A stretch of DNA of 64,000 bases from the sequence record MT446416.1. One strand, written 5' to 3'. Below are positions 16,901 through 62,959 of this stretch, piece by piece. The position numbers and the translations under genes are program-made. This stretch comes from Escherichia virus TH47. How positions within the stretch are numbered: position 1 is the first letter of the stretch; the number at the start of each line of letters is the position of its first letter. Under the pieces are notes generated by a model. That model was not told the origin of the DNA, did no database searches, and saw nothing but the letters and a program-made list of their open reading frames with translations.

Positions 16901-18891
16901 ATTTAGCTGTATCTGGTACACTAACTGCTGGTTCAATCGACCTAAGCAATACTGATGTAACCGTTAAATCTCTTGATTCACTAGGTAACGCACACATTGC
17001 TGGTAACCTAACTGTTGATGGTGCATTCGACTTAAGTGCAACTAACCTTGTAGCTGCAAGTCTAGCAAGTACTGGTTCTACTACTGTTGGAACTGATCTA
17101 GTACTAACAACTGGTGTTGTGACTGGTAGCCCAGCTATCTCTGGTAATACAACAATCGGTGGAACTCTTGGTGTAACTGGTGCTGTTAACCTAACTGATA
17201 TTGTTAATATCGGTAAGAAAGTAACAGTGAGTACTGGTGGTATTCAGGTAGTTGATGGTGGTATCAATACTAACACAATTAACGTTTCTGGTGCTACTAC
17301 TCTAGCAGGAACTTCCATTACTGGAACTTTAGGTGTAACTGGTGCTTCTACTCTAGCAGGTGTATCTGCAACATCACTAACAGTTTCTGGTGACAGTACT
17401 GTTCAGAAACTAACTGTCCAAGGTGAATTGATCCCACAAGGTGGTCTTGACCTAAGCGGTGCAGACATTACTGCTAATAGTCTAACTACTGCAACAACTA
17501 TCAATGCAACTGGCCTAAGTACTCTAAGTGGTGGTGTTAGTACTTCTACTGTGACTGCATCTGGTCTAGCAACTGTTGGAAGTTTAACTTCTACTGCAAA
17601 CGCATCAGTTGGTGGTAATTTGGGTGTAACTGGAACTCTAGGTGTTACTGGTGCAACTACTGTATCTTCACTAACAGCTACTGGTGCAGTGAAAACTGGT
17701 ACAACCCTAACTGTTGGTACTCCAGTTGGTGAACAACCTGAAACTGTACAGATCATTCCAGATACTTATATTGCTGGTAAATTGCGTGTAATCGGCGGTA
17801 TTAACGCTGATATTGATGTTAGTGGTCAAACACTAGAACCATATGCAATTGAAGCTGCTGCAACACTATCTGCTGTTGGTAACATTACTTCTGGTGCAAC
17901 CATCGTTTCTAAAGCTGCAACAATTGGTGATGTTGGTTCACAAAACAACAACCTAACTGTTAATGGTAACGTAGTAACTAATGGTGACTTCACAGTTACT
18001 GGGGTACTAAATGCACAATTGAACCAAGCAGATTCCGATGTAGCTGTTAAATCTTTAACTGCAACTAATAACGTTGCGGCTGGTACTTCAATCACTGCTG
18101 GTACTTCCATCACTGCAACTGGATTACTTAAAGGTAATACTTTAGAAGTTACTACTACTGGTTCATTTGGTGGTGCAGTAACTATGTCAAGTGGTGCAAA
18201 CATCACTGGTACAGTGGGTATTACTGCTGGTGACCTAACAGTAGGTGGTAATATCTCTGCAACTGGCACTGCTGGATTCGGTGCAACAACCGTTTCTACA
18301 ATTACAACATCAGGTTTGGCTACACTTGCAAGTACATCCGTTACTGGTAACGCAACAGTAGGTGGAACACTAGCAGTAACAGGAGCACTAACTGCGAATG
18401 GTAACGTAACATTAGGTGACGCAGCGGCTGACGTTCTAACCGTTAATGCAACTTCATCATTTAAAGAAAATGCTGTGTTTGATAAGGCAGTAACAGTAAC
18501 TGGTGAACTAACCACTACTAATGCTAACTTAACTACTACAACAGTAACTACCAAAAAGTATGATGTAATCCCAACTCAAGTTACATCATCAGTAATTGCT
18601 CCAACCGGAACATGGACTCCAGATGGTACAAGTAACGTGTACTTCATCACTCTAGACCAAGATACCACGTTGGCTCCAATTACTGGCCTAATTGGTGGCG
18701 GTAAAGCTGCATCAGTATACATCTATGTTAAACAAGATACAACTGGTAACAGAAACTTTACAACTGATGGTACTTATGCTGTTGTTGATGGTGAACTAAA
18801 CAAAACTGCTGGTAGCGTGACCATTTACCAAGTAATTTATGATGGTGTAAGTCCAGTTACTGATTTGTTCATTGCACAACGTACTGCTTAA
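13933..18891 (+). CDS. giant fibrous protein (1652 aa), probable long tail fibre
   Basis: GGAGGG RBS; Thr/Gly/Ser/Val/Ala-rich repetitive sequence with recurring LTVSG, VTGT and GNxT motifs; internal tandem duplication. Confidence 0.7.
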   Translation: MYSIKTDLDITGGATVGKDLLVKGDAVFNKNLTVNGTVTFADAVFTAIEAGTVDISSTLDVAGKASLNGGIEVHGNSVIGNLPVGSDTATINSNAQFQSPVSMAGNLTQTAGTAVLKDTQVASMDVLGTSSFKGNITAETGTTAAFDKITATDATFTNTATTDITSTGTANFKDVNISGTLGGTFSLSDVNATTLTVSGLTSLQGGVTLGSNITGVNSSANFRDIKIGSNAANTNYRLSFNYSAPSLRPTVILQNEIQSELMSPATLSVLKTASFGDSSLSTFGITGNGLNKLDYLTVSGNSVQDPTTPLLQVTSGKTKVHDFEVTGTATIPNIESTGTANFNNINVSGTLGGTFSLDDIEANTLTVSGLTSLVGGVTLGADISGANSTANFKAVSLGQNAADANVKYGFAYSAPGARPTVILQNEIQSELVSPAVLNVQKTATFGDASLATYGITGNGLNKLDYLSITGNGTQSPATPQLQVAGKSVLNDVEFTGTVTGLTVDVSGQDLTPKSVVAAEAIKGQTLESVGQTTVGTNLQVGGTANVVGALTGTAATFTGDVSAAKGTFSGDVSVTGQTVTVRDLVVTGTTTGVTAQADVDGLDIAPNKVDVTTTLSVAGDTTLAGLTASSVTSTGDVTGASVSGNTVTAAGALSGGSLAVTGAGSMASLTVPSITGDTTFANNVTITGTLTPSSIDLSTTDVSAASLTTTGNVTVGGSLAVTGAIDLSAADVVTKSVSATNPSTFGVINASSVAATGDVSGGTLTTTGAAKVGTLTSTGVVSGSRLSSGTATISTSVTVPTLQAEAAGAGTLNLASNVVAAKDLTVTGVFKPEGGLDLTTVDITANSLTTTADVNVGGNLVVDGTFDLSAADVSVKSLVSAEAITSGGVITVTDSTNTSSFPKITSTDATLFTVNAGTINATGNSVLQSVSATQVTATSAEFSGSGLGLQVDNDANVGGALSVGGIATVGSLTTTAASLNIAKNTAINGDLAVSGTLTAGSIDLSNTDVTVKSLDSLGNAHIAGNLTVDGAFDLSATNLVAASLASTGSTTVGTDLVLTTGVVTGSPAISGNTTIGGTLGVTGAVNLTDIVNIGKKVTVSTGGIQVVDGGINTNTINVSGATTLAGTSITGTLGVTGASTLAGVSATSLTVSGDSTVQKLTVQGELIPQGGLDLSGADITANSLTTATTINATGLSTLSGGVSTSTVTASGLATVGSLTSTANASVGGNLGVTGTLGVTGATTVSSLTATGAVKTGTTLTVGTPVGEQPETVQIIPDTYIAGKLRVIGGINADIDVSGQTLEPYAIEAAATLSAVGNITSGATIVSKAATIGDVGSQNNNLTVNGNVVTNGDFTVTGVLNAQLNQADSDVAVKSLTATNNVAAGTSITAGTSITATGLLKGNTLEVTTTGSFGGAVTMSSGANITGTVGITAGDLTVGGNISATGTAGFGATTVSTITTSGLATLASTSVTGNATVGGTLAVTGALTANGNVTLGDAAADVLTVNATSSFKENAVFDKAVTVTGELTTTNANLTTTTVTTKKYDVIPTQVTSSVIAPTGTWTPDGTSNVYFITLDQDTTLAPITGLIGGGKAASVYIYVKQDTTGNRNFTTDGTYAVVDGELNKTAGSVTIYQVIYDGVSPVTDLFIAQRTA
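14422..15453 (+). repeat. tandem duplication of a ~516-nt (~172-aa) unit inside the giant fibre gene
   Basis: two consecutive diverged copies (STGTANF..NxSGTLGGTFSL..TLTVSGLTSL..RPTVILQNEIQSEL..GITGNGLNKLDYL..). Confidence 0.6.
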
Positions 18892-18910
18892 TAATTATAA
18901 TAAAAAAAAC

Positions 18911-18934
18911 GGTGTCATCAATTATGGTGACACC
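18911..18934. terminator. hairpin between fibre genes (A-run upstream, no T-run downstream on + strand)
   Basis: stem GGTGTCA/TGACACC; orientation best suits a minus-strand terminator or an RNA-processing structure. Confidence 0.3.
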
Positions 18935-18957
18935 ATCTTAACAAGTGAGGTAGTTAT

Positions 18958-19737
18958 ATGTTTACATATGTAAAAGGTAGTTCTAAAGAAAATTATGAAT
19001 TGGGTAACATCATCTCCAACCCAGTTGGTGTTAAGGGTTTAAAAGAACGCCCTGGGGCAACTCCAGATGATGAACAAACATATCGTTATTTGTACAGTGA
19101 TATTCGTGCACTTTATGGTATTTCAAGTAAAGATGGTTCTGAAATTGAACCTAATAACGCTGTTCGCAAAGAAGAGGGTTTCTGGTGGTTGGAATATAAG
19201 AATGTTGGTAATGTGAACGCAATTAATGAGAATTTGGAATATATTAAACTACAAGATAGTAATCAACCAGTCATCACATTCTTAGAAGAAGCAGAAGGTG
19301 AATATAAAGAGTTAACAGTACTGAAAACTTATAATTATGTTGATATGGACATTGCAGCAGTTAAATCTGATCTGAAAGCACGCACAGTATCATCTCGTAG
19401 TGATCGTATTAATGCTGGTTATATGTTTAACGGTCATCGTTATAGTACTGATCTAGCTGGTCGTCAAATGCTTCTTAATTATTATACACAAGTAACTTCC
19501 GGTTCTGATAGCGTTTCGATTTTCCTTGATGACGCAATTGTAAAACTATCTGCTGCTGAAATGACTCAACTATACACTGAAGCATTTGCTATGGTTGAAT
19601 CCCTATTTGCAGAGTGTAATAAGCAATGTGCTGACATTGATGCAGTTCCTGATGCTGATGAAGATGCAATTTATAAAGCACAACAGGCGGCTGTATGGGT
19701 ATATGAAGGTATTGATATTCCTGAGCGTACTCGTTAA
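18958..19737 (+). CDS. hypothetical protein, possible tail-fibre assembly/chaperone
   Basis: 259-aa ORF with GTGAGG RBS immediately after the giant fibre gene; assignment by position only. Confidence 0.45.
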   Translation: MFTYVKGSSKENYELGNIISNPVGVKGLKERPGATPDDEQTYRYLYSDIRALYGISSKDGSEIEPNNAVRKEEGFWWLEYKNVGNVNAINENLEYIKLQDSNQPVITFLEEAEGEYKELTVLKTYNYVDMDIAAVKSDLKARTVSSRSDRINAGYMFNGHRYSTDLAGRQMLLNYYTQVTSGSDSVSIFLDDAIVKLSAAEMTQLYTEAFAMVESLFAECNKQCADIDAVPDADEDAIYKAQQAAVWVYEGIDIPERTR

Positions 19738-29249: not shown

Positions 29250-29271
29250 TTTAAATAAATCCTTTTAGTTA

Positions 29272-39706: not shown

Positions 39707-41701
39707 TTAATATTTTTTTGTGTATTTTATATTACCAGAGTTGTAAATCTTATAATATCCCAATACATCACAGCAAATTTGTCTCTCAGTTAAGTTAATA
39801 TCATGACCTTTCTTGACCAATTTATGTTTTTGACATTTCTGACGTGAAATCCTCTCATGTGTTTGTGGGTCATAATAAAAATATCCGGGTTCTGTATAGC
39901 TATCAAACTCAAAGCCAAGAACTGTATAAAGATCACCACTACTCCAATCCATATCCGCATATGTCAATAATGATTGTGGATTATATACTGTTTCAAAATA
40001 TTTTAGTAATTTTGATGCACCACCAACAACTGTACCGGATGAACAGTATCTGATTAATTCATATTCATAGTTTTTATCAAACCTTGATTTACCAAAGGTC
40101 ATAACTGCAACTAAATCACTTCCATAGTAAAGTCCAATGTGAATACTTGCTTGTGCAACACCTTGAATATGGTGTGATTTAGTAAACATATTACTTACTT
40201 GTTTGTCTATATTTCTAACAGTACATTTTCTAGCATAAATTCTATTTGACACTAGAAGTTTATTCTTTAAACGTTCCTTGATAATTTTATTTGTTAATGG
40301 GTTATCCCATTCATCTTCATAAATGTGAATAAGATTCACCCCATGTTTTAAACAATCCAATACCTTATCTTGATGTTTAGTGGAATTTACATTTTCATCA
40401 TTATGCCAATACACACCATTAAATTCAATAGCTAGATTACGGTCTGGGATATACACATCCAACTCTTTAGGTTTCAGCACTGAACGGTCGTTTTCTATAA
40501 TTTGCATATTTTGTATTAATGATTTTATATAATCAACTAAATCTTTCTCTTTCAATGAATGACCATTATTTTTCTGACACTTACATTTCACTTTATGATT
40601 TTTATACTTACTATAAAACAATTCATCACAATACTCACACCAAAATGGGTATTCGTCTGTATTAACTTTCATCATTAGGTCGGTGTTTTCAAATAATGGA
40701 ATATAGTTTTTATCAATATTTGCAACAATGATATTATATCTTTCGTCTAGACGAGCAAGTGACATTTTCTCTTTATACTCATCAGTCTGTGAGTAGTGTT
40801 CTGAACCATATCTATTTTTTGTGGTTTCTTTCATTTTTTCAATGATAGAATTATTTTGGGCTGGGTGTTTTACACCATATCGCTCCACATTGGTATTATG
40901 AACTTTTTCCTGAACACTCATATTGCTCATTGGGTAAAATGAATTATACTTCAACGTGTTGGTGTTTTTTATTTTATCTTGGACAATTTTATTTGATAGT
41001 GGATTGCCACCATATCGTTCAAGATTTGTTTTATTGATTTTTTCACGAATCGTCGGTGATGATAAAGAATACTCAGCACCGTATCTTAATATATTTGTGT
41101 TTTTGGCTTTCTCTTTTACTTCATTTCTTTTGCTTTGGAATTCAACACCATACTTTTTTAAATTTGTTGCTTTTACTTTATTGAATATTTCAGAGTTTTG
41201 GTTTGGATATTCACAACCATATCGCTCTATATTAGTTTGTTTGATTTTATCTTTAGTTTCTGATGTTTGTAAATTAGATGAGACACCATAACGCTCAATG
41301 TTAGTTTTTTCTTTCTTTTGTTTTACTTCTTGTATTTGGGACACATTAGATACACCATACATATCCATTAATGTTGATTTTGTTTTATTAGTTCGATTTT
41401 TATAATACATTTCATGGCATACATTACATGTATTTTTCTTATTAATCACATAGTCATCACAAAATTTATAAAATCCTTTTTGGAAATTTTTGTATCTTGC
41501 TTTTTTTCCGCAATATGCAGTTGGAACGGTTGTTATATCATTCATGAACATATATAGAATTTTATATATTTCGAAATCAGTTTTTGGTTCTATTCCAAAA
41601 GTAGAAAGGAGAACCCTCACACGAGAGTCCCCTTTGTATAAATGTACCCATGAATTAATATGTTTTGACAACAAAAGTTTTTTTAATTCTTCATTGTTCA
41701 T
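39707..41701 (-). CDS. repeat-rich endonuclease-like protein with Vsr/DUF559-type PD-(D/E)xK domain (homing-endonuclease candidate)
   Basis: nine tandem ~29-aa repeats with core TN(I/L)ERYG; Cys cluster CEYCDELF...CKC; motif LDVYIPDRNLAIEFNGVYWH. Confidence 0.55.
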   Translation of the reverse strand: MNNEELKKLLLSKHINSWVHLYKGDSRVRVLLSTFGIEPKTDFEIYKILYMFMNDITTVPTAYCGKKARYKNFQKGFYKFCDDYVINKKNTCNVCHEMYYKNRTNKTKSTLMDMYGVSNVSQIQEVKQKKEKTNIERYGVSSNLQTSETKDKIKQTNIERYGCEYPNQNSEIFNKVKATNLKKYGVEFQSKRNEVKEKAKNTNILRYGAEYSLSSPTIREKINKTNLERYGGNPLSNKIVQDKIKNTNTLKYNSFYPMSNMSVQEKVHNTNVERYGVKHPAQNNSIIEKMKETTKNRYGSEHYSQTDEYKEKMSLARLDERYNIIVANIDKNYIPLFENTDLMMKVNTDEYPFWCEYCDELFYSKYKNHKVKCKCQKNNGHSLKEKDLVDYIKSLIQNMQIIENDRSVLKPKELDVYIPDRNLAIEFNGVYWHNDENVNSTKHQDKVLDCLKHGVNLIHIYEDEWDNPLTNKIIKERLKNKLLVSNRIYARKCTVRNIDKQVSNMFTKSHHIQGVAQASIHIGLYYGSDLVAVMTFGKSRFDKNYEYELIRYCSSGTVVGGASKLLKYFETVYNPQSLLTYADMDWSSGDLYTVLGFEFDSYTEPGYFYYDPQTHERISRQKCQKHKLVKKGHDINLTERQICCDVLGYYKIYNSGNIKYTKKY
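40624..41389 (-). repeat. nine tandem ~87-nt coding repeats (ERYG repeats)
   Basis: periodic K.K.TN.ERYG....Q motif in the translated product. Confidence 0.6.
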
Positions 41702-41727
41702 ATAGTTCTCTTTTTAAATGTTTAAAT

Positions 41728-42519
41728 TTATCCGATAATCATTCCAAGTGGTTCCCCACCATCTTTATATCGCTTCAACTGTTCTTTTAGTTGTTCTTGT
41801 AATTGGATACCTTCATTTCTTAATGTATCACCATCCATTGAAAATGTCCCTTGCGGTCCAGGCAATGAAGCAAACTTAGCACGGTTACGACCAAGCATAA
41901 TCATTGCTTCAGACAATGCCCAATCACGAAGCCACGGGTAACTTTGCTGACGTTGGAATAACAATGGTTCTGGGATGTTATGATATACATGTAATAATAC
42001 TTCTTCTGTACCACGAATATCACGATCAATAATAAGTTTCTTAGTCATTTGGTTGAATTGGAATATAATTTCACGTCCAAACATACGACCAACCAATTCT
42101 TGAAATTGAAAGCTGAAATCATATGTTGTTAGGTCATATCCACCTGCATTCCTAGCAGACGTCAATAGATATGTATTTGTGAATGCCAATGAGAATGGGT
42201 CTACGCTGTTACCTGACCCAGAACTTAAATAACCATTACCATAACGATAAATCTTTTTAACAATTTCTACTTCTGTTGGTAGCATATATACCGATTGTGA
42301 ATCATAAAATTTCATATTTAAAAATGCTTCTTCTTTAGAAGCAGAACTCCACGCTCTGTAATTTGATACAGCATTATCAATTGCAATTTCTAATTGACCA
42401 TCAGTAATTTCTACCTCAACTGCACCTGCTCCCAACATTTGAGTGATAACATCTTTCAGTTTTTCACGATGATCAAAATTAGGAGCATCTGGGTTTCCAC
42501 CCATATAATTGTAAGACAT
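41728..42519 (-). CDS. hypothetical protein, possible virion protein
   Basis: 263-aa ORF, GAGGTG RBS. Confidence 0.5.
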   Translation of the reverse strand: MSYNYMGGNPDAPNFDHREKLKDVITQMLGAGAVEVEITDGQLEIAIDNAVSNYRAWSSASKEEAFLNMKFYDSQSVYMLPTEVEIVKKIYRYGNGYLSSGSGNSVDPFSLAFTNTYLLTSARNAGGYDLTTYDFSFQFQELVGRMFGREIIFQFNQMTKKLIIDRDIRGTEEVLLHVYHNIPEPLLFQRQQSYPWLRDWALSEAMIMLGRNRAKFASLPGPQGTFSMDGDTLRNEGIQLQEQLKEQLKRYKDGGEPLGMIIG

Positions 42520-42572
42520 AAAAAAAGCACCTCATTAATGTTTATATATACATTATTTAGAGGTGCTAATAC

Positions 42573-42746
42573 TTATTTTGAATTATACAAGCAGTACAGG
42601 TATACCAACGGAGTAAAATGTTCTGAATCTATAGCATATATTAACTGTGTAACATATATTCCGTATAAATCTCGACTTTTATCTCGGTACATTAACAATG
42701 AATTATTAAAGTATGGGTCAACCCAGTACTTTATATTATTTAACAT
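42573..42746 (-). CDS. small hypothetical protein
   Basis: short ORF filling a 265-nt gap; start uncertain. Confidence 0.25.
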   Translation of the reverse strand: MLNNIKYWVDPYFNNSLLMYRDKSRDLYGIYVTQLIYAIDSEHFTPLVYLYCLYNSK

Positions 42747-42783
42747 CAATGTATTGTTTCTGTATCCTGATAATTTTAAGCAT

Positions 42784-43161
42784 TTAGCCAACTTTTTCAC
42801 AATTACTTAGTAAGTGTGTGATTACATCGGCAGTGAATGGTCCTAGAACTAAAACTTCTTCTCCATTACCGAAGATACTCAATGGTACAGATTGTTGTCC
42901 TGCTAGATATTCGATTTGTTCTAATTCGAAAATGTCATCAGCAGCATAAACAACCTGTTCCATTTCATTATCTTTAATCCATGACTGCCAATGTTCTTTA
43001 AACTGCTTCGCTTCGTATTCCAGCACATAGTTAGGTGATTCTGGATTGTACTGATGTAGCATTGTCATACCAGCCATGACCAGTTCTTTTGGTGATGGAG
43101 TAGAATCTTTCAGTACTACGATAGCTTGGATAGTTTTAACTTTAACGTTTTGAGCAGCCAT
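42784..43161 (-). CDS. hypothetical protein
   Basis: 125-aa ORF, AGAGGT RBS. Confidence 0.5.
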   Translation of the reverse strand: MAAQNVKVKTIQAIVVLKDSTPSPKELVMAGMTMLHQYNPESPNYVLEYEAKQFKEHWQSWIKDNEMEQVVYAADDIFELEQIEYLAGQQSVPLSIFGNGEEVLVLGPFTADVITHLLSNCEKVG

Positions 43162-43173
43162 TAGATACCTCTA

Positions 43174-43482
43174 TTATAGAATGATTTTGTTATCAGGAAC
43201 AATCAGTGCTGGTTTTTCTTCGATAGCCTTGATTGCTTCAACATAAGCTTCAACTAGTGCAGGGTTTGCATCACTGATGCTGATGATGTTGGATTTATAA
43301 AAAATAACGCCTTTTTCAGAACTAATGAATTCTAGGTAATCACGTAGAATGATTTCACCTTGTTCGTCAGTACCTAGCTGTGCTGGGTAGTTAACTACTA
43401 CTGCTTCAGGTGCATCATTTTGTAGAATTGCTAGTACTGGGCCAACGCTGTTGATGTTTAGTAGTTTAACGGTCATAGTCAT
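43174..43482 (-). CDS. hypothetical protein
   Basis: ORF with AAGGA RBS; start at first ATG (track begins at TTG 43491). Confidence 0.45.
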   Translation of the reverse strand: MTMTVKLLNINSVGPVLAILQNDAPEAVVVNYPAQLGTDEQGEIILRDYLEFISSEKGVIFYKSNIISISDANPALVEAYVEAIKAIEEKPALIVPDNKIIL

Positions 43483-43501
43483 TTTTGTCAAGTCCTTTTG
43501 T

Positions 43502-43978
43502 TTATTTTATAATGTATAAGTGTTTTTCTGCATTAACCAGTCTGTGGTCAATGATTTCTTTGATAACGTTCCAGTTACCACCGCCTAAATCGGCTCCAAT
43601 TTTCGGGAAGTGTACATGAACAGTGCGTTCAACGTTACATAAGTAATTGAGTTGTTTGAAAACATCATCGATTGCATCATAACTCACATACTTAGAACCG
43701 TCATTACCATAGTACTTTTGGGTAATGCAGTTTGCGATAAGCAAATCATCACTTATAGAAGAATATGAAATTTGTCCTGTTCTTAGAAATCCCATTTCCT
43801 TTTCATATGCTTTATAATCATCATATGCCATCGGGTAACGATTTCTTAGTTCTTTTGCAAAACCCGAACCCATCTTACCCTGTGCATTACAACCATGAGC
43901 GATTATATGCAACGCGGTTTGATCATCAGTAACAGTGTTGAACAATTCAAACAAATTACCTAGGTGTTCATGTATCAT
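43502..43978 (-). CDS. macrodomain protein, TARG1/OARD1-like (ADP-ribose processing)
   Basis: motifs GNLF, LHIIAHGCNAQGKMGSGFA and FPKIGADLGGGNW align with TARG1 LAHCISEDCRMGAGIA and MPRIGCGLDRLQW; GGAGAA RBS. Confidence 0.75.
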   Translation of the reverse strand: MIHEHLGNLFELFNTVTDDQTALHIIAHGCNAQGKMGSGFAKELRNRYPMAYDDYKAYEKEMGFLRTGQISYSSISDDLLIANCITQKYYGNDGSKYVSYDAIDDVFKQLNYLCNVERTVHVHFPKIGADLGGGNWNVIKEIIDHRLVNAEKHLYIIK

Positions 43979-44029
43979 TATATTCTCCGAAAAGAAAGGA
44001 CTCTGTAATCAGAGTCCTTAATTTATATT

Positions 44030-44272
44030 TTATTCTTCTTCACCGAATCGAATTTTTTTCAATTCTTTTCGTTGTTTGCGAGCAATGGTACTTTTGTGAA
44101 GTCTATTACCACGTTTTGTGTCTTTCGTGATGTACCATGAATCTTCTGGTGCATTATAATCACAATAACCATCTTCTGTAATCGTCCCTAAGAAAGCAGA
44201 CTTTTTAGGAATGGATGTTTGAGCTTTAGCAGCGAATTGGCCTTTTGCTAATTGTTCACGAAAACTGAGCAT
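44030..44272 (-). CDS. hypothetical basic protein
   Basis: start at ATG with GGGAGA RBS (track begins at TTG 44287). Confidence 0.45.
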   Translation of the reverse strand: MLSFREQLAKGQFAAKAQTSIPKKSAFLGTITEDGYCDYNAPEDSWYITKDTKRGNRLHKSTIARKQRKELKKIRFGEEE

Positions 44273-44317
44273 AATAGTATCTCCCAAATTGTTACGAAGA
44301 ACTTGTGTTCTTCATTA

Positions 44318-44560
44318 TTATTTAGGGTTGCTCGAAACCTCTACTGAAGCGATGAATGCCAAAATATCATCTTTACTGAAAGCTTCAATAATATAAGCAA
44401 CCGCTTTATCGTACTGTTCTTTCTTAGTAGTGTATTCTTTCATTTTGTGAATTTTACGTTGTGCTTTAACTTTTGCAGCTTCCATATCAGGCATTTTAAA
44501 TTCAACACCCAATGTGTCAGCTAAATGTTTTGCACGAGATGATACTTTATCAATATTCAT
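44318..44560 (-). CDS. hypothetical protein
   Basis: 80-aa ORF coupled to glutaredoxin gene. Confidence 0.45.
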   Translation of the reverse strand: MNIDKVSSRAKHLADTLGVEFKMPDMEAAKVKAQRKIHKMKEYTTKKEQYDKAVAYIIEAFSKDDILAFIASVEVSSNPK

Positions 44561-44808
44561 TAATTCCAGCGACCTTCTTTAAGACCTTCAACGAAACCAG
44601 TACAGCCACCTGGAACGTAAACATCGTTTACGAAAATTTGTGGAACCTGTCGTACTGGCTCGCCACATAGTTCAGATAGTTTAGCACCATCAATACCAGC
44701 GGTAACAATATCGATAAACTCCATATCAAATTTGTTATTTTCACATACTGCTTTTGCAGTGTCGCAGAATTTACAACCAGTAGTGCGACCATAAATTTTA
44801 ACTTTCAT
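44560..44808 (-). CDS. glutaredoxin/thioredoxin-like protein
   Basis: 82 aa with N-terminal CKFC redox motif and Grx-like length; AAGGGAAA RBS. Confidence 0.65.
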   Translation of the reverse strand: MKVKIYGRTTGCKFCDTAKAVCENNKFDMEFIDIVTAGIDGAKLSELCGEPVRQVPQIFVNDVYVPGGCTGFVEGLKEGRWN

Positions 44809-45208: not shown

Positions 45209-45317
45209 CACGATAAAATATTATACCACAACTATAACGCATAATCTTATCTCTTTATCATCAAGTGATGTTCAGATACTAGTAATTATATCAGAAGATG
45301 TTAACTTGTCCCAGCTT

Positions 45318-46433
45318 TTAGAACATTTGCTTGATTGCTTCAATACGCAATTCAGCAACAAAATCACGAATCTCTGATGTTTGGAGTTCACCATCTTTCA
45401 CTAACTGCTGAATATCAGGTAATTCAACATCAGTATAACGATCATAAACTTTAATAATCAAATCTTCAAGATCAGAATCAATTTCTTTGTTCAAAATGAA
45501 GTTTTCCAGTACTTTGTAAAGGAAATCTTCGCCACCATTGTTTTTGATATTCATCTCCAGTAAGATTTGTCCCATTTCAACGGGGGTCTTCTTACGGAAG
45601 GTTTTAATATCTTCACGGAAACGCTTGATGTAATTACTAAACTTCACGTACTTAACTGGAACCTTAATAGAACCATTAAGTACTGAATCATTATTTACTT
45701 CTTCATTTTCAAGAAGTACTGTCCATAAGAAATATGGTTTATATTCTTCTGTACAATTTGCAGCGATAGCATCAATTAATTCCAGACGTTTCTTGGTAAC
45801 TGGAACTGTAGTAAATGCCTTTTCGTAATAACCAAATTGTACCAGAGTTTTGATAAACTTGGAAGGGTTTTCTTCAGAAAGTGCTTTTTCGAATTCAACA
45901 AAAACACGATCTGGAACTAGATGGTCTAGTTCACCAGTACTAACCATATCTTTACACATTGTCATAGTATCATCATGGATTGTAAAGTCTGAGTAACGTG
46001 TAGCGAAACGTGCCAAACGTAGTACACGCAATGGATCTTCTTTAAAGTGTTCTGATACATGACGAAGTACTTTGTTCTTGATATCAGCTTTCCCGCCATA
46101 AGGGTCGATGTGAATCTGGAGTACTGGATCATACGCTATGCTATTTACCGTAATATCCCTTCTGTATAGATCTTGCTCTAGTGTCACGCCTTTAGTATTC
46201 ACTTCGAAGCCACCGTAGCCAGTACCAGTTTTACGTTCGGTACGTGCCAATGCGTGCTCATTACCCTCTGGACTTAGATACACTGGAAAATCCTTACCTA
46301 CTTGCTTATAGCCAATACTTTGTAAGTACTTAATATCGGATTCGGTAGCACCGACAATGACATAATCTTTGTCTTTTGCACGAATACCCATTAAACGGTC
46401 CCTCACATAGCCGCCCACCAAATACTTTTTCAT
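45318..46433 (-). CDS. tRNA nucleotidyltransferase (CCA-adding enzyme) / poly(A) polymerase head-domain protein
   Basis: N-terminal GGYVRDRLMG, DKDY and RRDITVNSIAYD motifs; GAGGAAGG RBS. Confidence 0.8.
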   Translation of the reverse strand: MKKYLVGGYVRDRLMGIRAKDKDYVIVGATESDIKYLQSIGYKQVGKDFPVYLSPEGNEHALARTERKTGTGYGGFEVNTKGVTLEQDLYRRDITVNSIAYDPVLQIHIDPYGGKADIKNKVLRHVSEHFKEDPLRVLRLARFATRYSDFTIHDDTMTMCKDMVSTGELDHLVPDRVFVEFEKALSEENPSKFIKTLVQFGYYEKAFTTVPVTKKRLELIDAIAANCTEEYKPYFLWTVLLENEEVNNDSVLNGSIKVPVKYVKFSNYIKRFREDIKTFRKKTPVEMGQILLEMNIKNNGGEDFLYKVLENFILNKEIDSDLEDLIIKVYDRYTDVELPDIQQLVKDGELQTSEIRDFVAELRIEAIKQMF

Positions 46434-47497
46434 AATATACCTTCCTCTGAAAGATGTTTTTTTAATACAGTTAAGTGGTCTTCATAATATGTTACACGTA
46501 TTAATTTAATAAAATTCTTTTCACAATATTGTGTCTTTATAGTATCGTTATCCTTGATGTTTTTCAATTTATCTTCTCCACCCCAATGAGGTGATTTCTC
46601 AAAATGTTGTTTACCATCATACTCAATACAAATATCATAATCAACCAAATAAAAATCAAATCTTAATAACATTTTATTTTTACAGTCACTAAATGTTTGT
46701 TCTTTATTAAATTTTATACCATTTTCAATTAAAAAACGTGTTATTTCTCTACTAGCTCTGGATTCAGTATGTTCAGATGAGCATATTGGGCAACCTTGTT
46801 TTTTATTTTTTGCTATATGAAAATTTGGAATGATATAAAAAGAATTATTATGTTTTTTACAAATTATTTCAACATGAGTGCTACTATTAATGTAGATGAC
46901 TTTTGAATAGTCATATACATTACCATGAATTTCTTTTGCTCGTTCAACAAATTCAGCGGTGGTGAATGCGTGTGCTAATCTGGTTTTTTCAAATCGACAA
47001 ATAGAGCAACCCTGACCACTTTGTATATTACTAATTTCCATTTCATCAACGTGACCACATTTTAAGCATTTATAAGTTAATTTGGTTCTTTTATCTTTAA
47101 TTATTGGTTGTTCTAAAAGTAATTCACATTCACCAGTCATTAGACTTTTTGAAGTCTTATAAAGATAATATCTATAATTTGCATTGTCATATTTCCCAAT
47201 GATATATTTCATACCTTTCGTTTTTATATCATTTATATTTCTTTTTGTATATATAATACCATCTTTTTCAACAACAGTTCTTGTAAAACTAGATTTCCAT
47301 TCATCACTTGATGTTATAGCAAATCCTAAAATATTATATCCTTTTTCTATTATTTCTTCAAAATGTTCTTTAGGTGTTTTTGATGTTTTAATTAATTTTG
47401 GTGATAAATCTTCGGGACGCATCCATTCGAAACGCATACCTAATTCTTCATGGAAATATACCTTCTCGTTATTTTCATTAAAATAAAATTTATACAT
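46430..47497 (-). CDS. Vsr/DUF559-type endonuclease-like protein with zinc ribbon (homing-endonuclease candidate)
   Basis: CLKCGH...CSIC and CPIC Cys pairs; C-terminal LLRFDFYLVDYDICIEYDGKQHFE resembles DUF559 endonuclease motif. Confidence 0.5.
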   Translation of the reverse strand: MYKFYFNENNEKVYFHEELGMRFEWMRPEDLSPKLIKTSKTPKEHFEEIIEKGYNILGFAITSSDEWKSSFTRTVVEKDGIIYTKRNINDIKTKGMKYIIGKYDNANYRYYLYKTSKSLMTGECELLLEQPIIKDKRTKLTYKCLKCGHVDEMEISNIQSGQGCSICRFEKTRLAHAFTTAEFVERAKEIHGNVYDYSKVIYINSSTHVEIICKKHNNSFYIIPNFHIAKNKKQGCPICSSEHTESRASREITRFLIENGIKFNKEQTFSDCKNKMLLRFDFYLVDYDICIEYDGKQHFEKSPHWGGEDKLKNIKDNDTIKTQYCEKNFIKLIRVTYYEDHLTVLKKHLSEEGIL

Positions 47498-48652: not shown

Positions 48653-49045
48653 TTATAAAAAGTAATTGTACATTTTATTGTACAATATAAAAAGGTCTTT
48701 CACATTATCATAAGTAATATTAGATACATCATGAATTAATGATAACTGAAAAAATGATGCTTCGTCTATATCTACTGGGATTATAACATCATCGTCTTCG
48801 TCCATTTTATTGGTGTAGTATTTTATGTGATCAGCATTCATCTCAATAGAGAACGCAAGGTTGGATTTTGTATAATCTTCAATTAATCCGATAAATTTAG
48901 ATTTTTCATTAATAAAAAATCCAATCCCAAAACAACGGTTATCTGAATATGGATAGTACCATCTATTAAAAACTAGGCTTTCAGGTAAATCATCATCATG
49001 TGTTGATACGAGAGATTTTACTACATCTACCCAAACATAATTCAT
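48653..49045 (-). CDS. hypothetical protein
   Basis: 130-aa ORF with GGAG RBS. Confidence 0.5.
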   Translation of the reverse strand: MNYVWVDVVKSLVSTHDDDLPESLVFNRWYYPYSDNRCFGIGFFINEKSKFIGLIEDYTKSNLAFSIEMNADHIKYYTNKMDEDDDVIIPVDIDEASFFQLSLIHDVSNITYDNVKDLFILYNKMYNYFL

Positions 49046-49098
49046 AATTAAAACTCCATAAGAAAAGGGACAGAATTAATCTGTCCCTTTATTATATC

Positions 49099-49431
49099 TT
49101 ACTCTTCGTCTTCAGTCAAGTCTTCTTGAACTGGATGTTCTGGGTGGTTACGGCGATGCAATTTGATGCTTTTGTCTTTACCTAAGACAGTTTCCATTTT
49201 TTCAAATGAATCACCAATTGCTTTGTATAAATCTGCATCATCGGCTGTAACACTCTTACCGCCTGATGTTAAAGTTACGGAATATTGGTTCTTATGCTCT
49301 TTCTTCACATGAACACCAATATGCAGTACTGAAGAATCACTAAACTTCGTTAGTGCATTTGCTTCAGCATGAATTGCGTCATTGATTGCTGGAGTAATAT
49401 CAACATTACCTTGGATAACTAAATCTAGCAT
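49099..49431 (-). CDS. hpf: ribosome hibernation promoting factor / RaiA-like protein
   Basis: aligns along its length with HPF/YfiA (IQGNVDIT.A, VHVKKE, TLTSGG, DLYKAIGD, KLHRRNH); AAGGTAGG RBS. Confidence 0.8.
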   Translation of the reverse strand: MLDLVIQGNVDITPAINDAIHAEANALTKFSDSSVLHIGVHVKKEHKNQYSVTLTSGGKSVTADDADLYKAIGDSFEKMETVLGKDKSIKLHRRNHPEHPVQEDLTEDEE

Positions 49432-49455
49432 AATTTACCTACCTTTTTTTTAGTT

Positions 49456-50382
49456 TTAAAGATTACTAACTAACAATTCTGCACGGTTTCCTACTTGACG
49501 ATACCATAGAGAATTCTTAATTTCTTTTTTGAACTTGTTATCATTTTGATTATCAACGCTTTTCCATAATTTATTGAAAGTATTTAACTTATCAACTCCT
49601 AATGTAAATGCCATCTCAAATAAAATTCGTTGTTGTTCAGCCGTAAGGTTTGTTGCATTTCTTTTCTTCAATAATAAAACTAAATCATTATTAGTTCGTT
49701 CCATGTCAGACAATAAAAGTTTATGTGCTTGTGACTTCGTAATACCATTACGATACTTACTTGCATCTGATTCTTTCTTTCCAAGATAATGTCCGTACCC
49801 AATAGTGAAGTTACCTTTTATATCACGATACGGATAAAATTTAGAATTTCGATATGGAACTCCAACTTTCCCACCAAGTAAACGTCGTTTGTTCTTGGAC
49901 TGAAATTCAATAGAACCTTCAGCTTCTTTGATGTGATTGACAATTTCTGGATCTTTATAATCAAACAGTACAGTCACATCTGGTAACAATACGTGCTTCA
50001 AATCCTCTTTTGTTGGGATAAAGATACCCTGAGAAGTATGAAGAGTTGCATTTAAGTTGATGTTCTTCAACAAAATGACATAATCTTCAATCTGTACATT
50101 TTTAGGTTTAAATTTCTGTGCAATAGAATAATAACTATCACCAGGTTGAACCGTATAATGTTTCTCGCTGCTTGGAACTGCTTTTGGTACTGATACCTTT
50201 GGTAGTTCCTGCTTTTGAATTTGAGTAAACTGTGGTTTTAAATTATGCACCTGACTTTCGTCTAATGATGGTACATGATCACTTTGAGAAAAACCATAAA
50301 ATCCAATAGCAGCGAATAGGGCTGATGAAACTAATACGCCTACGGCAATTTTAGTTTTCAGTGCTTTTTTCGCTTTTTTCAA
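49456..50382 (-). CDS. signal-anchored LysM + T4-lysozyme-like (GH24-type) protein, endolysin candidate
   Basis: TTG start after AAAGGAGG RBS; N-terminal basic stretch then helix IAVGVLVSSALFAAIGFYGF; LysM-like YTVQPGDSYYSIAQKF; C-terminal FTIGYGH...LWYRQVGNRAELL resembles T4 lysozyme. Confidence 0.65.
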   Translation of the reverse strand: MKKAKKALKTKIAVGVLVSSALFAAIGFYGFSQSDHVPSLDESQVHNLKPQFTQIQKQELPKVSVPKAVPSSEKHYTVQPGDSYYSIAQKFKPKNVQIEDYVILLKNINLNATLHTSQGIFIPTKEDLKHVLLPDVTVLFDYKDPEIVNHIKEAEGSIEFQSKNKRRLLGGKVGVPYRNSKFYPYRDIKGNFTIGYGHYLGKKESDASKYRNGITKSQAHKLLLSDMERTNNDLVLLLKKRNATNLTAEQQRILFEMAFTLGVDKLNTFNKLWKSVDNQNDNKFKKEIKNSLWYRQVGNRAELLVSNL

Positions 50383-55849: not shown

Positions 55850-56293
55850 TTATTGTAAAACTTTAAGTTTGTAAAGCATTCCTTCACAAAAACTCATAAT
55901 GTCTTCTAGTGTGTTAGTACTGCCATAGTCTTCAGCCTCTTCAAGCATAGCATGAATGGCTTTACATTGACTAACATATTCTTCAAGAATTGGTACACAA
56001 TCCTCGATAGGGGTAAAACGATAACTGTTACCAGTACCTACCTGTAATGCCCCGCGAGTGTTCATAATACCCTCTACAAATGCATCAACGTACTCAGGTA
56101 ACTCTTTGTATAGTTCATCCAATTGTAGATGCTTAGTGTAGAAATGGCTCTGTAAATGCCAGTTGTGAGCAGCAGCACTTAAAAATAAACTATTCTCAAT
56201 AAATGTAAGTAGTACTTCATCATAAGAACTATCTTCTTCAGTATCTCCAATAAAGTCCATAACGTGGCGAAGTGTTGATATATCTTCATTCAT
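55850..56293 (-). CDS. Dps/ferritin-like protein
   Basis: segment AAHNWHLQSHFYTKHLQLDELYKELPEYVDAFVEG aligns with Dps ferroxidase region (H, H, D, E conserved); start at ATG with AGAGGA RBS. Confidence 0.45.
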   Translation of the reverse strand: MNEDISTLRHVMDFIGDTEEDSSYDEVLLTFIENSLFLSAAAHNWHLQSHFYTKHLQLDELYKELPEYVDAFVEGIMNTRGALQVGTGNSYRFTPIEDCVPILEEYVSQCKAIHAMLEEAEDYGSTNTLEDIMSFCEGMLYKLKVLQ

Positions 56294-56322
56294 ATAATTA
56301 CATCCTCTATGTGTATTCATAT

Positions 56323-56964
56323 TCATATTTTATTTATAGTAATGGTGATATTAAAACTTTCTATATCATTCTTTAATATATCAACTCGTTTTCGTAAACC
56401 ATCTATAACTTCTGGTATTACATCATTTTTATACATCTCTATTAACTCTTCTATATATTTTTTCTTTTCTATCTGCCACGCACGATGTGCATCTTCTGGA
56501 GTTTCATAAACACCAATGTATGTTGTTTTATTATATATTGTTATTTTAGCACAATAAGGTTTGGTATATTCACTCACCATGTCTTTTGGACGTTTTCTGT
56601 ATATCACTCCCATTCCATATGGTGATGCATTTGCAGCACTGTCTAGTATACAGTAATTCAATTCTTTGGGAACAAATGCACATGTTTCAGGAGAATAGAT
56701 TTTCTTACTCCCACCAATAATATCTTTATCTAATTGATATCCTTCTTTATAATGTGATTTGTACCAAATTTTAAATTTTGAATAATACTTCCACTCATCA
56801 CATACAACAGTTCCAATATAAGAACCCTTAGCCTTATCGGAATAGCATCGGTCTAACATACGTTGCCATGCACAATATATTGCTCGATCTGGATTTGTTA
56901 TACTAGCATCACCTTTTATATCACAGATGCCATGACCATAAAACTTCTTCATTAATTTATCCAT
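56323..56964 (-). CDS. AP2-like DNA-binding domain protein (homing-endonuclease-associated family)
   Basis: C-terminal YIGVYETPEDAHRAWQ resembles AP2 domain; N-terminal W..M..RC...Y....C..W pattern. Confidence 0.4.
   Translation of the reverse strand: MDKLMKKFYGHGICDIKGDASITNPDRAIYCAWQRMLDRCYSDKAKGSYIGTVVCDEWKYYSKFKIWYKSHYKEGYQLDKDIIGGSKKIYSPETCAFVPKELNYCILDSAANASPYGMGVIYRKRPKDMVSEYTKPYCAKITIYNKTTYIGVYETPEDAHRAWQIEKKKYIEELIEMYKNDVIPEVIDGLRKRVDILKNDIESFNITITINKI
56331..56338 (-). promoter_or_regulatory. T4-late-promoter-like TATAAATA box
   Basis: exact TATAAATA on the minus strand about 38 nt upstream of the Dps-like start. Confidence 0.3.
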
Positions 56965-56974
56965 ATTTTTGTAA

Positions 56975-60682: not shown

Positions 60683-62959
60683 TTATTTTTTACTGTACCA
60701 TTGCATTTCACGGATATCTAATAGTACCTTCGTAGCCAACTTTATGTTTGGTCGCTTCGGTAGATGGGTTTTATGATACGCCACATTTCGGATGTAGTCA
60801 ACCTTTTCGTTGAAATAATCCATAACTTCTTGATACAACCACTTCCCGTTACGAATGTCCATCAACATAGCAGCATCTGGTCGGTGAACTTGGATGATGC
60901 CAGTTTCAAGTGCTTCCTCGGCTGTATTCAGCAGCCTGATTGTATGCATAGCATGTTTGCAATTTCCATGTAATGCGGTTTTTCCATTTCTACGAGTAAT
61001 GAGTGTTCCGTTGGGAACAGAAAAACACACAGTTCTGTAATTAGTAACTGGAATTTTTTCAAGATTTTGTTTCATGTTCATTTTTTCGGTTTTGGGTTTC
61101 ATATTGATATGAATTTGATATATATCAACACTACCAAAATTGGTTTCGTTTGTGTATGGTCCCCATTTTGATGTTTCATAACCACATAGCAATGCTAGTT
61201 TTTGAACATCATCAGCTAATAATGAATTGGTAGTATAATATACAAATGTATCATTGTCATTAACTAAATTTCGTTTTGTTCCATCACCTTGTAACAAACC
61301 TTTCAGAAGGAAATCCATTTTACGTTTTGTTAAATCAAATACCCAATTTGGAATTCGTTTATTATATGAACCATGTCCACAATCATTATATAATGCTTCA
61401 GCTACTTCACTTGGGAATGTATATCTTGATTCGTCATTAGCTTGATAATCTTTCTTTTCTATAATGTATTCATTAAACATTAATTGACCAGATTTTTTGT
61501 ATTTTGATAAAGCACAACGCATACCTTGACTAGTTTTTGACTGGGAAATATATAAAGATTTTACTTTACCATCCCTGAAATTTATGCACCCATCTGAAAT
61601 AAACCATCCCATGAGTTGAAGATAAACTTTGATATCCATGTAGTCAATTGGACTTTTTTTATCTTTGTGTTCTTTAGTTATTGGGGATATTGTATTCAAA
61701 ATTTTATATGTTTCTTTTAATTGTGCTGCTTCTACAAATTTCCAATCAGACATATCTTTTTGTTGATTTCGTGCATAATCCTTAACATACATTCGGTGGT
61801 TAGCAGTCACTAAAGTATCTTGGTGATGACCAGTGAAATGGTATAGATTGCCATTATATAAATTATCAAAACGTTCAGTGTATTTCTGATATTCAACTTT
61901 GTGATTTTTGTCAAAAGTAGCTAATAGATCGTTTTCAGTAATATCATCAAATAACTTCCAACCATCTTTAGTTAAGAATTCAGTATCAAAACTATAACAG
62001 TCATAACCGTGGTGTGATTCAAGAATAGCACGTTTGGCATTACGGTTCTGCTTCCATTTGTGATAACTCTTACGGTTCTCACTATTTTCTTTGTATTCCT
62101 TTTCATTGAATTTTACAATGAGTTCAGGACGAACTTTTAATTCTTCCGAAGTACGTTCTTTATTGAAGTAACGTAGTGAACCATCAGCATTCACTGTACT
62201 TTCATTCGGGTTGATAATTACCCCAAAGATGTTTTCACCGTAATGGATTAGTTCATATCCAGAATTGTAATTCAATAAATTGAAATCACGATCTAATACT
62301 TTGTCAGTACTATAATTATGTACTAAACGTACAAAATGATATTGTTTCAATGCTTGTGTTGAAACTAATTGTAATGAAGTATCACGCATGTATTTTTCGA
62401 AATCAATTTTTGTAGCATTGAATGGGTGAAGATTGGATTTATTCAAACGGTCAACCAAATACTGCGGGAATGTATCATACATCCATGAAAGTACTTCGTC
62501 AACTGGATGTTCTTCTAAAATTTCATTTAGTTTACGTTCAGCAATTCGTTCCTTATCGAGCCATCCGTGGTGATTCGACATACGCTTAACCTGATTGTAT
62601 GCATAACCACTGTATGAATGAGCAATCTTTGAACTCAATAATTGCTGATTGAATGAGCGTAGATAGTCATAGATTTCAGTACTTTCTACGATGTGTTCCG
62701 GTTTAACCCATAGTGATTCAAGAATGTTTGGGTTAGCTTCTGTATAAAGACTTAAGTACTGATTGACTTCATAAAATTTAGTATCTTCTTCAGAAGGATC
62801 TGAAACTTCCTTAACATTAAAAAAAGGAGTTAGGATAAATTCTTTGTTTGCAAGGAAGATACCACGATAATCGGTATCACTTTCTGGTGTGCTTGTGCCA
62901 TACGCCTGTGAACCCGCTAAGTGTTTAACAATTGTTTGTTCTAGAAAATTGTTTTTCAT
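60683..62959 (-). CDS. Pol-beta-superfamily nucleotidyltransferase-fold protein interrupted by a probable intein
   Basis: N-terminal HLAGSQAYGTSTPESDTDYRGIF (GS...DxD NTase motif); in-frame 346-aa insert with Hint and LAGLIDADG blocks. Confidence 0.55.
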   Translation of the reverse strand: MKNNFLEQTIVKHLAGSQAYGTSTPESDTDYRGIFLANKEFILTPFFNVKEVSDPSEEDTKFYEVNQYLSLYTEANPNILESLWVKPEHIVESTEIYDYLRSFNQQLLSSKIAHSYSGYAYNQVKRMSNHHGWLDKERIAERKLNEILEEHPVDEVLSWMYDTFPQYLVDRLNKSNLHPFNATKIDFEKYMRDTSLQLVSTQALKQYHFVRLVHNYSTDKVLDRDFNLLNYNSGYELIHYGENIFGVIINPNESTVNADGSLRYFNKERTSEELKVRPELIVKFNEKEYKENSENRKSYHKWKQNRNAKRAILESHHGYDCYSFDTEFLTKDGWKLFDDITENDLLATFDKNHKVEYQKYTERFDNLYNGNLYHFTGHHQDTLVTANHRMYVKDYARNQQKDMSDWKFVEAAQLKETYKILNTISPITKEHKDKKSPIDYMDIKVYLQLMGWFISDGCINFRDGKVKSLYISQSKTSQGMRCALSKYKKSGQLMFNEYIIEKKDYQANDESRYTFPSEVAEALYNDCGHGSYNKRIPNWVFDLTKRKMDFLLKGLLQGDGTKRNLVNDNDTFVYYTTNSLLADDVQKLALLCGYETSKWGPYTNETNFGSVDIYQIHINMKPKTEKMNMKQNLEKIPVTNYRTVCFSVPNGTLITRRNGKTALHGNCKHAMHTIRLLNTAEEALETGIIQVHRPDAAMLMDIRNGKWLYQEVMDYFNEKVDYIRNVAYHKTHLPKRPNIKLATKVLLDIREMQWYSKK
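60962..61999 (-). mobile_element. probable intein with LAGLIDADG homing-endonuclease domain
   Basis: block A CYSFDTEFLTKDGWKLFDDI, block B LVTANHRMYV, two LAGLIDADG-like motifs LMGWFISDG and LLKGLLQGDG, C-terminal NGKTALHGN followed by Cys. Confidence 0.5.

Follow-up and report, generated by a model that had tools for sequence, protein, structure and literature searches.

A probable Hef-like homing endonuclease gene with a DUF7487 repeat array and a Mom-like domain in Escherichia virus TH47

The founding member of the Hef-like phage endonucleases, U5 Hef, reportedly described by Sandegren et al. in 2005, is said in papers that cite that work (PMC3239194 and PMC3296691) to have homing-endonuclease activity. 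The paper on I-Bth0305I defines a Vsr-like family of nucleases with the motif 'EDxHD' and names 'bacteriophage Hef type homing endonucleases' as members (PMC3239194). The Mom protein of phage Mu is an enzyme of the GNAT fold and carbamoylmethylates the N6 of adenine in double-stranded DNA, for which it uses Gly-tRNA(Gly) (PMC13219725). In the part of their paper that concerns such proteins, Iyer, Anantharaman, Krishnan, Burroughs and Aravind (2021) describe jumbo-phage Mom domains that are fused to nucleases of the restriction endonuclease (REase) fold, for example in PA5oct, and they read these fusions as restriction combined with protective modification (PMC7824862). Here we analyze a gene that bears on all of these systems. 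It lies on the minus strand at 39707..41701 of a 64,000-nucleotide stretch of the genome of Escherichia virus TH47 (MT446416.1), referred to below as the window, in which position 1 is the first letter. Based on megablast comparisons the window belongs to Asteriusvirus, that is, the 121Q/PBECO4/G17 group of coliphages of ~350 kb. In this jumbo coliphage the gene is probably, in our view, one for a Hef-like homing endonuclease of the free-standing type.

The gene is an intact open reading frame (ORF) that occupies 39707..41701 exactly. Its 664-residue product matches PHROG 3339, annotated 'homing endonuclease', with an E-value (E) of 4.7e-163, and PHROG 12131 is matched as well. DUF7487 is the only Pfam family that was matched, on the repeats, and a search of NCBIfam gave no match. 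Homologs are abundant: tblastn against phage genomes found them in 438 records at 1226 places, often with 4-12 copies per genome, and more than 3400 are present in a large protein database. They are annotated as 'Hef-like homing endonuclease', 'Hef', F-LimIII, F-LimX or 'putative nuclease/acetyltransferase', and the likeness to Hef rests on these proteins annotated as Hef or Hef-like and not on the sequence of U5 Hef itself. No paralog was found by tblastn within the window. The GC content of the gene is 27-31%, compared with 34-44% in the flanking genes. Ratios of nonsynonymous to synonymous substitution (dN/dS) of 0.06-0.15, ~0.10 overall, indicate purifying selection across all domains. An AlphaFold2 (AF2) model computed from an alignment of 116 sequences has a mean predicted local distance difference test score (pLDDT) of 92.5. 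It divides the protein into four helices (amino acids (aa) 1-55), a Zn ribbon (60-96), ten repeats (97-327), a further Zn ribbon (351-377), a nuclease domain (383-482) and an alpha/beta domain (487-664), all as predicted. The gene and its parts are as follows.

39707..41701, minus strand: intact gene for a Hef-like, probably homing, free-standing endonuclease, 664 aa plus stop (ORF; PHROG 3339; orthologs at the same site)
41537..41701, minus strand: N-terminal four-helix domain, aa 1-55 (AF2 helices 3-12, 15-24, 26-35 and 42-53, pLDDT >95)
41414..41524, minus strand: Zn ribbon 1, aa 60-96, with C64/C81/C92/C95 (beta hairpin 67-72/76-81 in the AF2 model)
40760..41377, minus strand: nine 23-aa DUF7487 repeats, aa 109-314 (repeat spacing; Pfam DUF7487)
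40571..40651, minus strand: Zn ribbon 2, aa 351-377, C355-x2-C358 ... C373-x-C375 (strands 351-355/360-364; conserved Cys columns)
40256..40555, minus strand: Vsr-like nuclease of the EDxHD family of PD-(D/E)xK enzymes, aa 383-482 (3r3p profile; Foldseek match to 1cw0)
39710..40243, minus strand: Mom-like GNAT-fold domain, aa 487-664 (Foldseek match to 8bv8; hhalign against the Mom family)

The original prediction, made from the letters of this DNA, was of an endonuclease-like gene between a deoxynucleoside monophosphate (dNMP) kinase gene and structural genes, with a repeat array, a Cys cluster, a Vsr-type motif and a further conserved C-terminal domain. Both the intact ORF with its predicted nuclease fold and the position of the gene bear this out; a dNMP kinase gene and a small ORF lie on one side and a neck/head-tail adaptor gene on the other. 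The Cys cluster proved to be two, one before and one after the array, both of which are modeled as Zn ribbons, and the conserved C-terminal domain corresponds to aa 487-664. Profile searches identified the repeats as DUF7487 and the nuclease as a relative of 3r3p, and fold and profile comparisons identified the C-terminus as Mom-like, the last of which had gone unrecognized. For the N-terminal four-helix domain, neither a Pfam family nor a fold match was found. The Cys columns of Zn ribbon 1 are near-invariant in the family; in the TH47 clade the CxxC knuckle is without its first Cys, and C92 is preceded by an insert of 7 aa.

The nuclease assignment is carried by aa 383-482. The catalytic domain of I-Bth0305I (3r3p) was the sole sequence match in the PDB; its E-value was 0.0045 when the single sequence was searched and 2.5e-8 when the family profile was used. 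In a Foldseek search of the AF2 model against the PDB the predicted nuclease domain matched Vsr (1cw0_A; E 1e-3, probability 1.00). A nuclease fold is predicted by the profile and the model alike, and the motif LAIEFNGVYWH, for which Vsr type had been proposed, does fall within the Vsr-like domain, at aa 423-433. Across 116 homologs, seven positions (E413, D415, E426, H433, H443, K446 and E462) show conservation of 88-100%. Among these, E413 (110/116), D415 (116/116) and H433 (115/116) represent the E, D and H of the EDxHD motif. In the sequence alignment, the position of I-Bth0305I D222 falls on T441-H443, where H443 (113/116) is found and not Asp, and E462 (E in 102 and D in 11 of the 116) is another candidate acidic residue. 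Pfam detected no NUMOD motif anywhere in the 664-aa protein, the N-terminal region of which consists of the Zn ribbons and the DUF7487 repeats.

The distribution of the gene within Asteriusvirus is that of an insertion with occupied and empty sites. Only two other records have it at this site, namely UE-S1 (protein 96.5% identical) and ph0011 (94%). By megablast, a further 26 records, which represent 24 distinct genomes, align to the flanks as two separate pieces with ~2.0 kb missing, that is, with an empty site. The cassette of ~2.0 kb is situated between the neck stop codon and the neck terminator, and no gene is interrupted. An empty site reads neck-TAA, 3-8 nucleotides (nt), terminator hairpin; at the occupied site, that hairpin is separated from the neck stop codon by ATTTAAACATTTAAAAAGAGAACTAT-ATG...TAA-T. 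Because of a short AAAAAGA duplication, the exact insertion boundary is ambiguous. The claim that the gene interrupts conserved core genes holds insofar as it sits between core genes, and fails insofar as the insertion is intergenic. The comparison with related phages that was proposed at the time gives a clear result, in that at least 24 genomes lack the gene with a junction at the neck stop/terminator, and it is not the case that all relatives carry the gene. The immediate surroundings comprise the following elements.

41728..42519, minus strand: neck / head-tail adaptor Ad2 gene, the upstream neighbor (PHROG 211, E 3.6e-42; annotation in relatives)
41702..41727, minus strand: 26-nt spacer from the neck stop to the endonuclease ATG, with the ribosome-binding site AAGAG (sequence)
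39679..39705, minus strand: intrinsic terminator hairpin directly 3' of the endonuclease stop codon (terminator scan and junction alignments)
39363..39632, minus strand: conserved 89-aa ORF, 3' of the terminator (PHROG 34967, E 3.9e-53)

A mosaic pattern around the gene was measured by identity in 500-bp bins and by the sites at which vB_Ec-M-J, which lacks the gene, and UE-S1 differ. TH47 is 97-100% identical to vB_Ec-M-J over 29000-38827 and 42853-46000, whereas over 38836-42847 its identity drops to 81-87% for vB_Ec-M-J and stands at 94-98% for UE-S1. Before 38827, 156 informative sites follow vB_Ec-M-J, apart from one of UE-S1 type and one that is ambiguous; over 38836-42847 ~90% of roughly 340 follow UE-S1; and after 42853 they follow vB_Ec-M-J again. 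The bins around the endonuclease gene are the most divergent in the whole 64 kb. The tract is delimited as follows.

38836..42847, no strand assigned: donor-type (UE-S1-like) co-conversion tract of ~4 kb, centered on the gene (runs of informative sites)

This pattern implies that a vB_Ec-M-J-like genome received the gene together with flanks of ~870 bp on the dNMP-kinase side and ~1120 bp on the neck side. Judged by comparison and not by experiment, the tract is the classical co-conversion signature of homing. The mobile insertion that had been predicted is supported by both the empty sites in 24 genomes and the ~4-kb donor-type tract in a vB_Ec-M-J-like background, the latter pointing to a recent transfer. 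Additionally, ph0011 shares the UE-S1 haplotype on the neck side only (95-98% identity over 41500-43500), which weakly suggests that the putative break was on the neck side of the gene.

On the minus strand the order of elements is neck/head-tail adaptor gene, endonuclease gene, intrinsic terminator, 89-aa ORF, dNMP kinase gene and tail sheath gene. The terminator hairpin follows the neck gene directly in relatives without the endonuclease gene. The 89-aa ORF is annotated in 121Q, vB_Ec-M-J, UE-S1 and ph0011 and is present without the endonuclease gene; it lies outside the insertion. No promoter belonging to the endonuclease gene was apparent, as matches in a sigma-70 scan of the region were no commoner than in shuffled sequence. 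Given a ribosome-binding site and no evident promoter, the gene is probably transcribed by read-through from the late neck transcript, of which the neck gene is the probable source. Outside the genus, homologs that are ~47-54% identical occupy the same position between neck and dNMP-kinase genes in two Alcyoneusvirus phages of Klebsiella, Muenster (locus L006, 3465..5468) and K64-1 (L016, 2213..4216), which implies that occupation of the site is old and spans genera. In both of these phages the terminator is upstream of the gene and the 89-aa ORF of Asteriusvirus is missing.

The repeat array had been described as at least nine tandem copies with a period of about 29 aa. The number is accurate, as there are nine clean units at aa 109-314 and a degenerate tenth at ~aa 315-327 that reaches nt 40721, and the period has to be corrected: successive spacings of 23, 23, 23, 23, 23, 22, 23, 23 and 24 residues give a period of 23 aa. 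In the TH47 protein the core is T-N-x-E/K-R/K-Y-G ... Q ... K-x-K, and 409 units from 121 family members give the consensus x-T-N-L-E-R/K-Y-G-V-E-x-x-x-Q-S-x-E-I-K-E/D-K-I-K, in which T2, Y7, G8, K21 and K23 are near-invariant and positions 11-13 and 16 vary most. The repeat type, said to be unfamiliar, is one that Pfam already lists, as DUF7487 (E 4.4e-38; 131.8 bits, where the cut-off is 27; over profile positions 1-118 of 220, which are the repeat part), although it is indeed uncharacterized, and our search of the literature returned no mention of DUF7487. Tandem Repeats Finder detected no repeat of the array in the DNA. Each repeat is modeled as a 15-residue helix and a short turn, so that the array is predicted to be continuously helical; it has no structural match in the PDB though it is modeled with high confidence.

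The company that these repeats keep suggests that they form a module associated with nucleases. Homologs have between 3 and 16 copies. Among predicted viral structures, the array is found in many phage 'endonuclease-like' proteins, and Klosneuvirus, Marseillevirus and an iridovirus have it in nucleases and in Zn-ribbon proteins. In gp269 of Vibrio phage Va1 (Va1_269), encoded beside the major capsid gene, the same repeats are joined to a TnsA-like PD-(D/E)xK nuclease, which the remainder of the DUF7487 model overlaps. The likening of the array to modular repeats of homing endonucleases gains weight from this fusion and from the giant-virus nucleases. DUF7487 proteins of ~300 aa are encoded between the two halves of nrdA in Acinetobacter phage KARL-1 (L015, 1204..2103) and between two tape-measure fragments in Lactococcus phage AM2 (L014, 1363..2304), so that essential genes appear to be split by insertions that carry the repeat module. 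Split nrdA and tape-measure genes are typical positions of homing endonucleases. We infer from this context, from the charge of the array (which is basic, with an isoelectric point of 9.5) and from its fusion partners that it binds DNA. Furthermore, positions 12, 13 and 15 of the repeat are conserved (0.44-0.75) between orthologous repeats of the TH47 protein and its Alcyoneusvirus orthologs, which are 52-55% identical to it, and agree little between the repeats of one protein (0.08-0.19). This pattern, in nine repeats only, is as expected of repeat-specific recognition residues and hints that these positions may have such a role.

The C-terminal domain gives the best fold match of the whole modeled protein in the PDB, phage Mu Mom (8bv8_A, E 2.1e-7), followed by many GNAT acetyltransferases, all on this domain. 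An hhalign comparison of the Hef-like family profile with a profile of 55 Mom proteins gave a probability of 93.4% (E 2.4e-7); with the single Mu Mom sequence the match was weak (22% probability). Against the Pfam Mom family PF25680, the TH47 domain scores 18.3 bits, below the cut-off of 27.1, and homolog P0009 scores 32.4 bits, above it; a precomputed PF25680 match exists for about a dozen of 120 listed homologs. Residues H58, R111, S124, D149, R151 and Y159 of Mom are important or essential for momylation, R151A having no detectable activity, and Y59, W48 and W181 are also needed (PMC13219725). The equivalents of H58 (H511), R111 (R551) and Y159 (Y592) are present in 116/116 family members, and those of S124 (S563) and D149 (D583) in 97/116 and 90/116. 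R151 aligns with D585 in the TH47 protein, and the residue is D or N in its six nearest homologs, preceded by M at 584; an R or K is found at 584 or 585 in 82/116 family members, not in the TH47 clade. The position of Y59 is I512, and is I or L across the Hef-like family, and W48 and W181 could not be aligned with that family. The domain has the lowest dN/dS of all domains, 0.06-0.08. It is a genuine relative of Mom under strong constraint. A full-text search for literature that joins Mom, GNAT and homing endonuclease returned nothing relevant.

Elsewhere in the window there are other regions that differ from close relatives. The patch at 49000..50000, over a LysM/lysozyme-like gene, has 86% identity to vB_Ec-M-J and resembles UE-S1; that at 17000..19000, over tail-fiber genes, has 89-95% identity to vB_Ec-M-J, and there TH47 is without ~4.9 kb of vB_Ec-M-J sequence. 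No endonuclease gene was identified in either patch. A second free-standing endonuclease-like gene (46430..47497, minus strand; 355 aa) directly follows the CCA tRNA nucleotidyltransferase gene as an insertion at 46435-47491. Its product finds a match in PHROG 559/9084 'homing endonuclease' and combines a treble-clef/CapR-like Zn finger with a PD-(D/E)xK-like motif 'ICIEYDGKQHF'; the gene is absent from vB_Ec-M-J, UE-S1, ph0011 and 121Q, and its flanks are diverged as well, at 90-94% identity to vB_Ec-M-J. Relative to vB_Ec-M-J, the ORF for an RlaP-like nucleotidyltransferase (60683..62959, minus strand) contains an in-frame insertion of ~1036 bp (~345 aa) at 60962..61997, which starts at a Cys and ends ...HGN|C, with LAGLIDADG motifs in between (Pfam LAGLIDADG_3, 24.6 bits). 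These features give it the look of an intein, one that is absent from the closest relative. Finally, a 213-aa ORF at 56323..56964 (minus strand), in the region 56270..56970, is absent from vB_Ec-M-J and has no Pfam match, and it may be another mobile insertion.

How firmly can homing be concluded for the gene at 39707..41701? Several observations speak against it. The final Asp of EDxHD, D222 in I-Bth0305I, is not clearly present, with H443 nearby. Occupied and empty alleles do not differ in the final 40 nt of the neck gene, and with the 3' end of that gene identical in both no immunity-conferring change is evident. All three genomes of the sister genus Alcyoneusvirus that were examined or listed carry a homolog at the same site, which could mean that a useful function has been retained. 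With no more than 94-98% identity between the tract and UE-S1, the true donor has yet to be sampled. Some divergent patches, such as 49000-50000, show no obvious endonuclease gene, and mosaics can therefore arise by general recombination alone. DNA binding by the array is argued from context, charge and fusion partners and not from a known fold. Some of these points, namely the unclear final Asp, the apparent fixation in Alcyoneusvirus and the general mosaicism of Asteriusvirus genomes, with patches at 49000-50000 and 17000-19000, would also fit a passive cargo, that is, a domesticated or inactive nuclease-like gene moved by ordinary homologous recombination without making a break of its own. 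We regard this as very unlikely given that the divergent patch is centered on the insertion and is the most divergent stretch of the 64 kb, that E413, D415, H433, H443 and K446 are conserved in 95-100% of homologs, that the nuclease domain has a dN/dS of ~0.1 and that U5 Hef reportedly has homing-endonuclease activity. A chance open frame or decaying pseudogene, with the repeats as low-complexity noise, might be suspected from the AT-rich region (GC 27-31%) and from the lack of a DNA-level repeat in Tandem Repeats Finder. Its probability is close to nil, and we reject it in view of the >3400 homologs, the Pfam and PHROG matches, the pLDDT of 92.5 and the dN/dS of 0.10.

A more substantial alternative is a single-chain weapon akin to restriction-modification, in which the Mom-like domain would covalently modify the phage's own adenines and the nuclease would attack unmodified DNA of the host or a competitor. 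Fusions of Mom with REase-fold nucleases in jumbo phages are described in these terms where they are discussed in PMC7824862, Mom acts on double-stranded DNA (PMC13219725), and the C-terminal domain here is Mom-like, keeps the equivalents of H58, R111, S124, D149 and Y159, and is the domain with the lowest dN/dS (0.06-0.08). However, the essential R151 is replaced by D or N, with M before it, in TH47 and its six closest homologs, Y59 is replaced by I or L, and the TH47 protein falls below the Pfam Mom cut-off (18.3 against 27.1 bits). Furthermore, sporadic and site-specific presence, co-converted flanks and many paralogs per genome, at different sites, fit a selfish element better than a genome-wide defense, and a long repeat array implies a long and rare target, not a frequent restriction site. 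We consider such a weapon unlikely, and it is in any case compatible with homing, as a homing system could use the modification for its self-immunity.

We therefore favor a homing endonuclease that would act as follows. The gene, lacking a promoter of its own, would be read through from the late neck-gene transcript. When a phage without the gene co-infects, the protein would be kept on a long DNA site near the neck/dNMP-kinase junction by its Zn ribbons and its basic DUF7487 array, and the Vsr-like (EDxHD) domain, probably dimeric as in I-Bth0305I, would make a double-strand break. Recombinational repair from the gene-carrying genome would then copy the gene in and co-convert the flanks. The Mom-like GNAT domain most probably aids the binding or handling of DNA and may modify adenine near the site, which is the least certain step. 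A bolder proposal, and a distinctly unlikely one in our estimation, is that Hef-type proteins are three-function machines, in which the DUF7487 array is a modular DNA-reading solenoid not recognized before and an active Mom-like domain marks the adenine or adenines at or near the target, possibly by way of an aminoacyl-tRNA. If true, a protein of this sort would combine homing with a covalent self-immunity of its own and would amount to a mobile restriction-modification unit in a single chain, the recognition module of which is long and looks programmable.

As a matter of annotation the gene is routine, being one more Hef-like gene of which near-identical copies are already in GenBank. What it offers is that the recipient type (vB_Ec-M-J) and the donor type (UE-S1) are both sequenced, so that the proposed homing event and its tract can be read to within a few bases; such a clean donor/recipient pair defines the empty-site substrate and makes the event directly testable. 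The gene also draws attention to two under-studied modules of a very large viral family, the DUF7487 array, which occurs in phages and giant viruses joined to nucleases of several types, and the Mom-like domain, which is under strong purifying selection. Neither module has ever been characterized.

Among known systems, Mu Mom is the best structural match of the C-terminal domain, and the essential HTH-like (helix-turn-helix-like) insertion of Mom has a predicted counterpart at roughly the same place in the TH47 protein, a short-helix insertion at aa 604-648. In contrast to the stand-alone Mu enzyme, the TH47 domain sits within a nuclease, is ~20% identical to Mom, does not conserve R151 and Y59 and is not accompanied by a com-like regulator. 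The Mom-REase fusions of Iyer et al. (2021) share the same class of architecture, and the PA5oct-group proteins are direct homologs; their account of these fusions draws no link to Hef-type homing or to a repeat array (PMC7824862). The known modular repeats of phage homing endonucleases are likewise short tandem modules that occur in variable number on different nuclease domains, but their sequences are unrelated to DUF7487, and they are arranged as beads on a string whereas the array here is predicted to be continuously helical.

The catalytic domain is homologous to that of I-Bth0305I, the D196 and H213 of which align with the conserved D415 and H433, and in both proteins the DNA-binding region, putative in that of TH47, is N-terminal to the nuclease. 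The gene for I-Bth0305I lies in an intron, and the enzyme carries two NUMOD2/HTH motifs and has the nuclease at its C-terminal end, whereas the TH47 protein has DUF7487 repeats and an extra Mom-like domain of 180 aa. There is also a close likeness to Hef and Hef-like enzymes of T4-related and other large phages, such as F-LimIII/VII/VIII/X of Dickeya phage LIMEstone1 and the copies in the Campylobacter CP220 group. Homology to these, with an identity of 28-44%, extends over aa 264-663 or more and so takes in the final repeats and Zn ribbon 2 together with the Vsr-like and Mom-like domains. Their genes fall in the same PHROG, are free-standing between conserved late or structural genes, and are sporadic, with several paralogs per genome. 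Compared with many T4-type Hef-like proteins, the TH47 protein has an additional four-helix domain, Zn ribbon 1 and 9-10 repeats instead of ~2, and its gene resides in a different host lineage, Asteriusvirus, and at a different insertion site, neck/dNMP kinase. With these differences, the TH47 gene is a member of the known Hef-like/EDxHD kind and not of a new one.

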